64,000 nucleotides of DNA, taken from the NCBI RefSeq assembly GCF_002854065.1, contig NZ_CP024150.1. One strand, 5' to 3'. Every line of letters starts with the position of its first letter. The stretch's first letter is position 1. Source of the stretch: Escherichia coli. GTDB lineage: Bacteria > Pseudomonadota > Gammaproteobacteria > Enterobacterales > Enterobacteriaceae. Made by a program: the position numbers. This document shows, in pieces, positions 39,001 through 48,000 of the stretch.

Positions 39001-42000
39001 ATGGATTCAGTTTGCTCGAGACATCCATCAGCATGCTGTTGTCTACTCTTTTTATAGCATCAGTACACATTGAAGTATTATCAGTCATAAAACTGTGGGT
39101 AAACACCAGTACTTTAATTGATATTAAAGATAAAATTTATCAGGTAGAACAAAATTTAATAAAATGTTCTCGGAATAATTCCGGTATTTGCCCTCAATCA
39201 GACATAACACGTATCCAGAAGGAATCTAATTTATCTACAAAGCTTAATATTTGCATTACTGAGGAAAAAGGGAATTCTTCAAAAGGTGTAGGCGTTCATA
39301 TTTTCGCAAGCTATTTTTATACAAAAAATGAAGATATTAATAATCAGTTGGCAAATAATATAATCGGAGGTTTATCTGGTTTTTCTGTTCCGGGGAAAGG
39401 ATATCAAAGTTCTTTGAATACATGGTTTATTCCTGAAAACAAAATATGTAGCTCTGTAATTAATAATTATAATCAGATTTTCATATATGATTATATATCT
39501 TTGCGTGGTTGATGTCTATGCTTCAGTTCATTTTCATTTTTATATCTAGTGTGTCACTTGCTATCAATATTGCTGTAACCAACCAGTTCGATTTCTCTAC
39601 AAAAAATAATAGCAATTTAATAAAACAGGATATGGTTTTCGATTTCATTGATTTTAACATTCAGCAATGCATCCACAATAAAGATTGTATATATGATCCT
39701 TTACCAGTCGAAAAAATTTACTCTTTAAAAATAAAAAAATGTGAAGTTAACACTGGCAATAAAAATATATTTATTTTATACACCGTTCCAAGTCTATCTG
39801 TATATGTTCCTCTAAATAATACTAATCAAGATAATAATGCTATAATAAACTATCAAGCGCTTGATAATAACATAAAACAGAAGTGTTTTAGTTCACGTCA
39901 AGATGATAACCTTGTTCTGGGGTTGGTATCGAAATGAAAAAAGAACGTGGTTTTTCGTTGGTAGAGATTGCACTTTTCTCTGTTTTGATAGGAGTGGTAA
40001 TGGCTAATATATATGATATAAAAAGAACTTTTGTTAAGAATATTTATCATAAACAATTATCACTTGCAGTTTGTTCATATGCCAATGCTTTTTCTCGATA
40101 TATTAACATGGAACAAAATATTACTGACTACATTACGATAGAACAACTCAAAAAGAAGGGGGTGATAACCCCTTTTGCAGAATCACAGATAGGTTATTTT
40201 ACAGTATCCTTCCAGATAATCAAAAAAGATGGGTATCAATATGGATTGATGAAATTACATTCAAACAAAAAAATTACTACTGAAGAAGAAAACTTACTAT
40301 CAAGGGACATTGGCGTCTATAGCTCAATTAAGACTCCAACCTCTTTAAAAGGCCTATATTATGGCATTGATATTGATGGCGTTTACACCCCAGGTAATGG
40401 AGATATATATGCAATTATTCCTCCCCATTATTCTAAATACCAACGATGCCAGTGAGGTTATAATGAAAAGGAAAAATCAACATGGATTTTCACTAATTGA
40501 GGTTTCATTGTCTTTGATTTTTATTTGCTTTGGTATGCTATTCTCTTTTTATTTTATAGATATGACAAAAATGATCAGTAACTCACAAAAGATCTCCGAG
40601 GATTTTTCTCTCATAAAAAATTATTGTATTAAGCAAAGTGAATCGATGTCTCCAGGTAATACTTCCGTAATAAAATATAAAAGTGAAGACATTTACTTAC
40701 CTCATGGTTACTTGATATTTATGCAAAAAAGGAATGATAATTCATATATGTGTTTATCTTTGCTTGAAAATAACAAAAAATCGTTCAATCTTGATCAGTT
40801 ATATATCATTTCTTTTTTAACAGGTGTTGAGGGAGCATATTATGAAAAAGGTGAAATAAAAAAGCCATCAATTTTATTTAGTCCTGTGAATGTCAGCTCA
40901 TTAAATATTCCAGAAAATCAGTTCTCATCATCAAGAATGCCAGCGCTTTATTTTATAGGTGACGAGCGCTCCTGACTAATATATCACGGAGTGATTCTTT
41001 AGAATTCTGAAGAGCTAGTATGTAGAAGTACTGTTTATTATATCCTTAACGATATTACCCATGCAATAAGAGACTTTATCATTAGATGTTATAGTGTACT
41101 CAGGATTCATTAATATAACTATGGATTATACTACCGAATGAATCGAAAAGATTTATACTGTAAACACGCTAAAGTCATGGCCAGTTTTGTTAACCATTAC
41201 AGTGCTGATCTTGCCCCACCATTTTTGCCATGCGGTTAAGTAAGAAAACTCTTAGTCCGAGGAGACTCACATGACAAAACAGTATTACTTAGCAAAAAAT
41301 CGTAAACAACATTCACCTGAATTTTACAGTGAAGATCTGATGCTTGCGGAACACATCAGTGTTGCTGCCTCGGCCCGTGAATTCAGTATGTATGAGTTGA
41401 ACTTAAACCCCCTCGCGATGTGAAAGGTACCTTTGAGCTGCGGTTTATTCGCAAAAATCATACGCGCATTACGCACATGGATCGGCAAATCCTTTCCTTT
41501 TACGCAAAAGGCATGACACGCGTCAAATCGTCTCCATTTTCAAAGAGATGTACGATGCGGATGTGTCGCCACGCTGATATCGAAAGTCACGGATGCCGTT
41601 TAGGAGAATGTCACTGAGTGGCAAAATCGCCCGCTTGATACACTGTATCCCATTGTTTATCTTGACTGTATTGTTGTGAAAGTCCGTCAGGATGGTAGCG
41701 TAATTAGCAAGCCCGTATGCTTAATGCTCGTAATCAATACCGAAGGCCACAAGGTGTTGCTGGTAATGCGGATAGAGGAGAACGAAAAGGCGAGATTCTG
41801 GCTGAGCGTGCTGACAGAACTGAGAAATTAGGGGCTGGAAGACATTCTCATCTCCTGTTTTGATAGTCTGAGAGCTTCCCGGACTCAATAAATAGCGTAT
41901 GTCCACAGACGCGTGTATCGTTATGCATATGATCCACAACAGCCTGTAATATGTTACTTGGAAAGACTCAAAGCTGTGATGCGTGATCTGAAGGCGATTA

Positions 42001-45000: not shown

Positions 45001-48000
45001 AACAGAGGCGATGTGAGGCCACCAGTTTCTCATTACTGTAGATCCGCAACTCGTCATCCAGCGATATTCGTATTGATACCGGCTGACCACACAGCGCTTC
45101 GGGAACGCTGTAACGATTACCGCCAACCTCGATATAACTGTCCCTGGACACATGACGGATGTCGAAGTAACTGGTATCGAAGTCCGTATCCGGTAACGGC
45201 CGCAGATGTTCCTGCTCCAGCGCGAAGCGCTGTTCCGGTGTTTCTTTGAACTGGCGAAGTTCCCGTTTGTCAGCCACATCGGCTATCCATTGCTCCAGTT
45301 GTTGATTGACATGAGTGAAGCTGTCGAACCTGCGGTACCGGACGAAGAAGTTCTCCTTGAGGTATTTCACCATCCGCTCAACCTTACCTTTTGTTCTGGC
45401 CCTGCGTGGACGGCATGCCCGTGGCAGGAAGTTATAGTGGTCGGCCAGCAACAGGAATCCGGAGTTGAACACGACTTTCCCGTTGTTATTCTTCAGCACC
45501 GCAACCTTCTGGTTATCAACCAGCACCGTTTTCACACAACCACCGAAGTAGCGGAAGGCGCGAACCAGTGATTCATAGGTATGCTCAGCATCCTGTTTTG
45601 GTGCGGCAAAGACATGGAAGCGGCGGGAAAACCCCAGCGTATTAACCGCAAAGTTAACTTTGCACCGTTGCCCGGCAACCTCCACCTCAACTTCGCCCCA
45701 GTCGTGCTGGAGCTGGTATCCTGGCTGAGTTTCGAAGCGAACTGTTCTTTTTGACGGACGCATTTTACGTTTGGGCTGGATGTAGTAACGCAGCATGGAA
45801 CGTCCGCCCGTATAGCCCATTGCCTTAATCTCCGCGAAGATAACCTCGCTATTCCAGACATTCTCTGCCAGGCGCATGTCGATGTAATCCATAAACGGTT
45901 TCAGCTTAACCATTTTGTGGCGGGTTTTTCTGGCTGGCGGTTCAGGGTATTTGAGGTAACGTCTGACCGTTCGTTAAGAACAACCAATCTGAGTCGCAAT
46001 ATCGACAATGTACGCGCCCTGCTGGCGCATTTGCTTTATCATGTAAAAGTCCTCTCTGCTCAGCATGTTGATGTCCTTTTTGGTGTGAGAACCTTAAGGA
46101 AACAATATGTTGGGTGGAGCGGACAATCCAAATGGTGAATTACCGTCTTATATCACTGGCGCTAACAACAGAGCTGGTCCTGATGCATGAGGCACTGGCG
46201 CAACAGCGGGTGTGCGGCTGAGAGCCGCATCGGGGAAGTTGCGTCCATTTTCAGGGGAATGGAGTAAAAAACCATCAGTGATATACAGTATCAATCGATA
46301 AGATCCATTTAATTGACGGCGGTGCACTCATGGCACGCAGGCAGTGTTGAATAAACATCCGTTTTGGGGTGTTTTTTTAATCTTTTTGGGATTTAAATTC
46401 CTATCGATTAAATTCCTATCGATGAACCGAAGAGCACGGCGGTGCGGAGTCCGGAGAGTAACGGCATAGCAGAGAGCTTCGTGAAAACGATAAAGCGTGA
46501 CTACATCAGTGTCATGCCCAAACCAGACGGGTTAACGGCAGCAAAGAACCTTGCAGAGGCGTTCGAGCATTATAACGAATGGCATCCGCATAGTGCACTG
46601 GGTTATCGCTCGCCACGGGAATATCTACGGCAGCAAGCCAGTAATGGGTTAAGTGATAACAGGTGTCTGGAAATATAGGGGCAAATCCAGAAGGTATCCC
46701 TTCGGGTTTTTGCTTAATTGTTCCTCCTAAACCGGATGGAGACATTGCAGGATTAGGTTTGTGAGTGGATGCATAGTCATATACTGCACCTCCAGCCCCC
46801 CCCAGCAGCTGCTACAATTCCTCCTGCAACAAATTGCCCGGATAGTGTTCCTATAGCCATCGCAATATCACGCCCTGAAGCACCACCAGAAACAGAATCT
46901 AATTCATTTAGAGTCAGAGTTCTCATATGATCTCCTTTTTATCTTATCGGATATTGAATAATAATTATCACCAACAAAGTAACATATTGCAGACATTAAT
47001 GCAGAGAAGCAAAATGTATGCATGGATAAAAAGTCCTTTCCTCTAAAAACACAATCATATATAGCTAATGCAATATATATTGCGGTGGCATTTATTATAA
47101 ATGCAAATAACAAATCTAATTTTGTTCTTTTTCTATCCATTACTTTCTATCCATTACTTTCTATCCCATTACCACACAAACACTAACGATAATGATTATC
47201 GTTCACATAATCAAGAGTGAAGGGTAGGCGGCCCTCACCCCCCTATAAGGGGTCCGCTTGGAAAACGGATTTTCCCACGTCAAGAGAATTGAGTTGAACG
47301 AGTGGTTACATCCAAGCCTGCTAACTCACTGAACGTAAAGGATGTACGAAATGTTCCTACCGTCCGATAACCATTTGGCTTACTTCCGTACATTCCCTTG
47401 CGTAGATGTTCAGAATTGTACGATTTCGGACACCAAAACCGCTGTTGTCCCGCCATTCTGGCGATTCCTGAAAGTCATTTGACTAAAAAATAGTCTTAAC
47501 GTGGTTTATTTTCCGAATTCCAAGCGCCCCCCCTACATTTATACAATGTCCTGCAGGGCATAGAAGTGGCGAAAGAAAATACCTGGGCGAAGCCGCTGAA
47601 CATCATTCTGGCGATTTCAATAAAGGTACTTGCTCGCGCTCTGTCATTTTCTGAAACTCTTCATGCTGCATTTCGATTTTCCTTCTAAGATCATAACTCG
47701 CATACCTGTTCTTTTTATGTATATCTATTTTTGTGACGAGTTCAAACCACGATGTTCGCACTCCCCATGCAGCGTTATGAAACATTTCCGCAACGGCTAT
47801 AGAGTCTGTATTAACTGCTTCGGTCATGTAGTCGCTAATACGTTCAGCGGTAATTTTCGTTATTTCATCGTAATTCATTTTATCTCCTACAAGATTATTT
47901 AATGGAATGCAAAATATCTGGTCTGATAATAATGTTCCAGAATTAATATCTGCAGGCTATGTTAAGTTGTCCCCACACACAATCTACCTGTTTTCTCGTG

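Follow-up and report, generated by a model that had tools for sequence, protein, structure and literature searches.

How does a plasmid come to keep immunity to colicin V after losing the toxin, and is the debris of insertion sequences (ISs) that now borders the immunity gene really inert? We asked this of a 64,000-nucleotide stretch of Escherichia coli DNA (the window; contig NZ_CP024150.1, assembly GCF_002854065.1) that is 100% identical to the E. coli plasmid p2017.06.05CC_1 (NZ_AP027791.1; IncFIA/FII; 109,780 bp; human faeces, Viet Nam). The region of interest is flanked on one side by a type IV pilus gene cluster (~32000-41000) and on the other by a RelE/ParE toxin-antitoxin pair, beyond which lies the IncFII repA. 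The first-pass annotation described it as an "IS graveyard" of nested and fragmentary elements at 41206-46689, and all the features it claimed were recovered within a few bases of the coordinates it gave. The nested and broken pieces are real, but the graveyard is not fully dead: one IS2 appears intact, and in a sibling strain transposition has made use of the right inverted repeat (IRR) of a truncated IS2 tail as an end. Very probably, the region is a multi-layer transposition scar of this plasmid family, lying between the pilus cluster and the IncFII replicon, with the history set out below. A comparison with related plasmids, which the annotation had proposed as a route to the order of insertion, was run with p2017.17.03CC_2 (L002), pZH48-2 (L023; NZ_JBMIQC020000003.1), pMTY14664_IncFII (L005) and pSCU-107-1 (L008) among the plasmids compared, and the siblings provided both the empty site of an IS2 insertion and a set of nested end points in cvaC.

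The IS2 at 43596-44926 (plus strand) aligns from end to end and without gaps, over 1331 bp, with the IS2A copy of strain K-12, to which it is 95.6% identical (59 nucleotide differences). The two copies have the same length, an identical left inverted repeat, identical OrfA proteins, the A6G window, a full-length OrfB and a 5-bp duplication, and they differ by 12 substitutions among the 301 residues of OrfB and at one of the 41 positions of the IRR (40/41 identical); the inverted repeats of IS2 are known to be imperfect, with 42 bp on the left and 41 bp on the right (PMC3299598). The open reading frames (ORFs) orfA (43687-44052) and orfB (44010-44915), both on the plus strand, overlap, and the A6G window for -1 frameshifting is located at 44004. 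In profile searches OrfA scored 276 bits against NF006928 and OrfB 704 bits against NF006918, both IS2-specific models matched over the full length and above their cutoffs. With its reading frames and ends complete, this IS2 looks intact. It is a common variant, matched at 99% identity or more by 878 plasmid records in PLSDB, although the Prokaryotic Genome Annotation Pipeline (PGAP) names it only "IS3 family transposase".

The annotation had placed this IS2 in istA of an IS21-family element with a clean ATGTT duplication, and both its coordinates and the duplication hold (left copy 43591-43595, right copy 44927-44931). p2017.17.03CC_2 and pZH48-2 carry the same IS21 uninterrupted, with ATGTT present once, so that the insertion and the duplication are demonstrated and not merely deduced from the repeat. 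Duplications of 5 bp also flank four further IS2 insertions, in K-12 (ATTAC), L002 (GTTGC), L009 (AACTG) and L022 (CATTA). The element entered after codon 380 of the 390 codons of istA, near the end of the gene as proposed, leaving beyond the duplication 33 nt that include the stop codon, and not 34. A first impression from PLSDB that the IS21::IS2 junction was private to this plasmid was dropped when a larger RefSeq set yielded two more carriers; the junctions are common to the window, to pCUPSTF6_1_02 (pig, Thailand) and to E-93 unnamed2 (China). pZH48-2 (pig, China) has no IS2 insertion at all, and p2017.17.03CC_2 instead has a K-12-type IS2 within its IS91 fragment.

The interrupted element is itself an IS21 that shows signs of later rearrangement. 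Its right part (42701-43595, minus strand) comprises the right inverted repeat (TGTCAACGCCA...), istB (43558-42761) and the last 33 nt of istA, and its left part (44932-46167, minus strand) the left inverted repeat (TGTTAGCGCCA...) and istA codons 1-380, with the start at 46066. Removal in silico of IS2 and of one copy of the duplication gave a 2131-bp element (span 42701-46167). Intact copies that carry the annotation "IS21-like element IS21 family" are colinear with it from position 1 to position 2131 and up to 99.5% identical. Such copies on E. coli plasmids (for example pDS26_81, pRM14721 and pLH10-b-1-A) have the same length of 2131 bp, the same termini (TGTTAGCGCCA...TGGCGTTGACA), an identity of 99.2-99.5% and the same gene layout, in which istA (390 codons) overlaps istB (265 codons). 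IstA scored 282 bits against NF033546 and IstB 297 bits against NF038214, both above cutoff, as a DDE transposase followed by its AAA+ helper. We name the element IS21, and identify it with the IS21 of plasmid R68.45, the original isolate, on the basis of the PGAP label, of these intact E. coli copies and of the published IS21, which is also 2131 bp long. Besides the IS2 after codon 380, the window copy differs from the intact ones in two nonsense codons, both noticed in the first-pass annotation: a TAA at istA codon 31 (45976-45974, minus strand) and a TAG at istB codon 60 (43381-43379, minus strand), where three intact copies read GAA and CAG. All five sibling plasmids have the TAA and the TAG, with or without the IS2 insertion.

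The last difference lies outside the element. The three intact copies, which reside in unrelated contexts, are each flanked by a 4-bp duplication (tttg, taac and aggg), whereas the window IS21 has none: its flanks are tcgt (42697-42700) and acag (46168-46171), and they come from unrelated sequences. The absence of a duplication is no argument against membership in IS21; together with the mismatched flanks, it indicates that a later deletion or recombination joined the IS4 fragment described below to the right end of IS21. Two other observations concern IS21 more generally. Elsewhere on the same plasmid, outside the window (L011, 32246-34469), a pair of genes resembling those of the heat-labile enterotoxin (a 285-aa hypothetical protein and a "cholera enterotoxin subunit B") adjoins a 332-bp fragment of IS21 istB with 94% identity. 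In unrelated plasmids (L005, 10831-10900; L014, 2793-2870), an IS3-family element with the left end TGGGGATGCGGACGATTTCC lies 26-28 bp inside an IS21-type terminal repeat, which may reflect targeting of IS21 ends.

The sequence that separates IS21 from the IS2 tail is no mere spacer. The stretch at 46168-46423 (plus strand) is the 3' (ori-IS) terminal fragment of an IS91, which the first-pass annotation overlooked. It carries the final 54 nt of the transposase gene and the end ...AATTCCTATCGAT, and shares 99% identity with the terminal 244 bp of complete 1830-bp IS91-family elements. Four reference copies of IS91 stop at the same base (...AATTCCTATCGAT) and are followed by CAAG or GAAC, the two tetranucleotides reported as targets of the IS91 family (PMC3189936). 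In the window, the end ...CCTATCGAT abuts a GAAC that corresponds to position 1066 of IS2, and no duplication is present. The fragment thus has the sequence, the end point and the GAAC target of IS91, a rolling-circle element with an HUH transposase, but unlike the full element it retains only the last 256 bp, with the HUH (Y2) gene reduced to its last 54 nt, and its terminal 15 bp are duplicated. All five siblings have this tandem duplication of the extreme ori-IS terminus (46393-46422), which none of the four complete IS91 copies shows. The IS2 tail that follows (46424-46689, plus strand; IS2 positions 1066-1331) begins at its present base because IS91 inserted at the GAAC of an IS2. It has an intact IRR and is 97.8% identical to the complete IS2 of the window (6 differences in 267 nt) and 96.3% identical to K-12 IS2A (10 differences). 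A tail that truncates cvaC had been reported, and it is there; its length is 266-267 nt (46423/46424-46689) and not 264. IS2, IS21 and IS91 nest in one another repeatedly: IS91 is found at a different GAAC of IS2 in L015 (~2741) and at a GAAC inside istA of IS21 in L021 (~5245). The latter also accounts for plasmids H224-H232, where pieces of IS21 and IS91 seemed adjacent and which were set aside as a separate event, with IS91 inserted into IS21 at GAAC.

At 46690 the tail meets what is left of the colicin V locus, whose homology to the reference plasmid pECOS88 spans exactly 46690 to 47305. In pECOS88, cvaA-cvaB are convergent with cvi-cvaC and are located past the 3' end of cvaC. The window retains cvi, its upstream region and nt 1-239 of cvaC, at 97.6% identity over 616 bp, and lacks cvaA, cvaB and the 3' end of cvaC; neither cvaA nor cvaB was found anywhere on the plasmid. 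The remnant of cvaC (46690-46926, minus strand), delimited by alignment to the 309-nt coding sequence of pECOS88, is frameshifted by a 2-bp deletion, while cvi (46904-47140, minus strand), an annotated coding sequence of 78 aa, is intact and differs from the pECOS88 version by one substitution. Tandem 14-15-bp repeats cover the cvi start codon (47128-47172), with three copies in the window, two in p2017.17.03CC_2 and three in pECOS88; the 14-bp repeat was considered as a private duplication and rejected, as it varies in copy number and is present in reference ColV plasmids. A different bacteriocin locus of the plasmid, the microcin B17 operon, contains a K-12-type IS2 outside the window (L011, 42096-43426) that has no 5-bp duplication (flanks attaaa / tcgaca). 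mcbB and mcbC are not annotated there and a YcaO-like gene beside the IS2 looks truncated; IS2 seems to have damaged this second bacteriocin locus of the plasmid too.

The proposal that the IS2 junction mediated deletions at the colicin locus finds direct support in the siblings. The same IRR terminus joins cvaC at 46690 in the window, p2017.17.03CC_2 and L024, at 46705 in E-93 (L025) and at 46819 in pZH48-2, so that the deletions extend 15 bp and 129 bp further in the siblings from a fixed end at the IRR, and cvaA and cvaB are gone from the plasmid. The assignment to IS2 may hold only in part: IS21 lacks a duplication, and some of the loss may instead stem from a rearrangement associated with it. 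pZH48-2 is otherwise very like the window, with the same IS3', IS256' and IS4' remnants, an IS21 with both stop codons, the IS91', the IS2 tail and cvi; it differs in its uninterrupted IS21, which represents the state before the IS2 insertion, and in the further 129 bp of cvaC lost from the IRR. In a RefSeq-wide search the composite was present in six records, and no chromosomal record reached 80% coverage or more.

A shorter unit is found on a chromosome. In strain 2017.17.03CC, the host of p2017.17.03CC_2, the chromosome (L022; NZ_AP027829.1) has at 1671-3453 a 1783-bp segment that matches the plasmid sequence at 100% identity and is made of a full IS2, 185 bp of IS91 and the 267-bp tail. 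This segment sits in a fimbrial usher gene and is flanked by a CATTA duplication; the IRR of the truncated tail has therefore served as a transposon end in the sibling strain. In the first step of IS2 transposition only the IRR acts as donor end (PMC3299598), and an orphan IRR could thus stay functional, which fits both the nested deletions and the 1783-bp unit. Taken together, the chromosomal unit and the nested deletions suggest that the IS2 tail is probably still active, and the IRR-anchored deletions would then depend on transposase. It is about as likely as not that the tail goes as far as to behave as a live one-ended element, in which the orphan IRR, supplied with transposase from elsewhere, drives repeated cvaC deletions and could pair with the left end of any IS2 newly arrived upstream to mobilize what lies between them, as in the 1783-bp unit.

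The remaining pieces lie upstream of IS21, where the first-pass annotation had recognized a diverged IS3-like end and an IS256-family transposase in pieces, both of which were recovered by alignment and tblastn; its inventory overlooked a putative fragment of an IS4-family gene. The diverged left end of an IS3-group element (41206-41400, plus strand) consists of the left inverted repeat, from TGATCTTGCCCC, and codons 1-46 of orfA. It has 81% nucleotide identity to positions 21-190 of K-12 IS3A and 61% amino acid identity to residues 1-46 of InsE; IS3 itself is its closest match in PLSDB (79-81%), and PGAP labels the short ORF only as a hypothetical protein. The IS256-family transposase pseudogene (41396-42152, plus strand; tblastn) covers residues 76-402, including the DDE region, of an intact 402-aa transposase, at 52-68% amino acid identity per piece, with pieces in three frames, in-frame stops and an internal deletion of about residues 272-337. 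Its N-terminus and left end are missing, homology stops at the stop codon at 42152, and no terminal repeats or target duplication were found. The putative 5' fragment of an IS4-family transposase gene (~42616-42700, plus strand; tblastn, residues 24-49 of a pO55 homologue) is cut exactly at the right end of IS21, so that about 25 codons are left in the window. A longer version in pMTY14664_IncFII has 82% nucleotide identity to IS4-family genes, although its match to the NCBIfam model transpos_IS4_1 (E=4.7e-4, 19 bits) is below the cutoff of 115. All three remnants also occur in pMTY14664_IncFII and pSCU-107-1, plasmids only 92-97% identical to the window, and they therefore belong to an old layer. 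The ~460 bp between the IS256 and IS4 remnants (42153-42615) contain an ORF for a 50-aa hydrophobic peptide (42463-42615) that is conserved in pMTY14664_IncFII; neither this ORF nor a 91-aa ORF at 47603-47878 had a match in Pfam or NCBIfam. A scan of 40000-50500 with Rfam returned nothing but CopA near repA.

The nesting implies an order, in which the old remnants were followed by IS2 in or next to cvaC, by IS91 into that IS2 and by IS21 into IS91. The oldest layer is the heavily decayed IS3-like end, IS256-family pseudogene and IS4-family fragment. An IS2 variant struck the colicin V locus, where its IRR now abuts nt 239 of cvaC, and IS91 then entered that IS2 at GAAC. The 2131-bp IS21 now has its left end in IS91 and its right end in the IS4 fragment, without a 4-bp duplication. 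Each IS21 gene then gained its nonsense codon, and the second, apparently intact IS2 was the last to arrive, after istA codon 380, with the ATGTT duplication. A deletion associated with IS21, or recombination between two IS21 copies, would have removed the rest of IS91 and the first 1065 bp of IS2, and with them the 3' end of cvaC, cvaB and cvaA. The orphan IRR of the tail, still working as a donor end with transposase provided in trans, would have produced the nested cvaC deletions and the mobile 1783-bp composite.

Several points weigh against this history as it stands. The step that removed cvaA and cvaB could be an IS2, IS91 or IS21 event, and the reciprocal junction expected from a simple insertion of IS21 into IS91 (IS91...ACAG followed by the IS21 IRR) was not found in PLSDB. 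In pMTY14664_IncFII, an 18-25 bp remnant resembling the IS21 IRR is found where the IS4 homology stops, 216 bp beyond the junction seen in the window, and the history of IS21 on the IS4 side therefore needs an extra deletion or an independent insertion; an IS21 copy on that side may be old, with one extra step required. The end points in cvaC could also, formally, be transposase-independent deletions that happen to finish at the IRR. The pMTY14664_IncFII remnant bears as well on a different origin for the mismatched flanks, namely homologous recombination between two direct copies of IS21, located in the IS4 fragment and in IS91 respectively; this, and not an intramolecular IS21 transposition or an adjacent deletion, would have deleted everything between them. 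We regard this as a serious possibility, though not the one we favour: it would account for the lack of a target duplication, the remnant lies in the same IS4 fragment and in the same orientation, and another IS21 fragment exists elsewhere on the plasmid, but the distance between remnant and junction, together with 1-2 differing bases, still calls for an extra deletion, and no donor arrangement was found. Somewhat less likely is that IS2 first entered the cvaB-cvaC intergenic region and that a deletion adjacent to its IRR later reached nt 239 of cvaC. L009 has an IS2 in precisely that region, in the same orientation and with its AACTG duplication, and the siblings document IRR-anchored deletions of 15 and 129 bp; the L009 copy, however, is of the K-12 type, whereas the tail resembles the variant type more closely (6 differences in 267 nt, against 10 from the K-12 type), which makes L009 a separate event, and the left half of the old IS2 has been lost, leaving no duplication to compare.

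ISs are a classic source of misassembly, and two IS2-related copies lie here 1.8 kb apart, yet an assembly artefact is scarcely credible when the same junctions recur in three complete plasmids, each sequenced independently, of Vietnamese, Thai and Chinese origin, and complementary empty or alternative states in two more. We give as little credence to a functional IS21 in which the TAA and TAG are read through or recoded. Its ends are intact and the remaining frames are 99.5% identical to those of active-looking copies, but both stops are simple substitutions of sense codons, and the TAA falls within the N-terminal helix-turn-helix domain HTH-1 of IstA, which spans residues 1-39 (PMC10122671). 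Moreover, IS2 removes the last 10 codons of istA and splits it from istB, and PGAP calls both genes pseudogenes.

Other features of the window were noted in passing. Two inverted copies of IS3 (11876-13130, plus strand, and 24480-25736, minus strand), 99.4-99.7% identical to K-12 IS3A, enclose about 11 kb with sodC, a nuclease-helicase gene, a RelE-family toxin-antitoxin pair and a recombinase. The pilus cluster (32000-40975) is of a type IVb-like kind, with a major pilin, a TcpQ-domain protein, a secretin, PilO2 and ATPases, and includes five divergently transcribed ORFs of low G+C content, at least two of which have prepilin-type features; it is kept at 92-97% identity in pMTY14664_IncFII and has decayed in pSCU-107-1. 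Between the window and p2017.17.03CC_2, differences are bunched upstream of repA (48724-49467; ~45 per 750 bp), and the scar at 46243-46969 has zero.

Every component of this region is a known element acting as described for its family, and the feature is real but ordinary and already known. In RefSeq, PGAP already reports an "internal stop" for both istA and istB; cvaC is flagged there as "frameshifted; missing C-terminus", the IS2 tail as "IS3 family transposase, missing N-terminus" and the IS256-family gene as "frameshifted; internal stop; incomplete". The present analysis contributes the IS91 and IS4 fragments, precise boundaries, the finding that IS21 has no duplication and the series of siblings compared. 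Six IS pieces now have correct boundaries, and two of them, the IS91 and the IS4-family fragment, have no PGAP annotation, which in itself matters little beyond housekeeping. The events can now be ordered across a plasmid lineage with human and pig hosts in Viet Nam, Thailand and China, and the scar explains why the plasmid keeps colicin V immunity (cvi) and yet cannot make or export the toxin. If the tail is indeed a live end, the window equivalent of the 1783-bp unit would be the 3094 bp at 43596-46689, and the sibling plasmids would form a natural series recording the asymmetry of the IS2 donor end in vivo. More generally, and modestly, a truncated IS end need not be inert, which is relevant whenever "partial transposase" pseudogenes are dismissed in plasmid comparisons.

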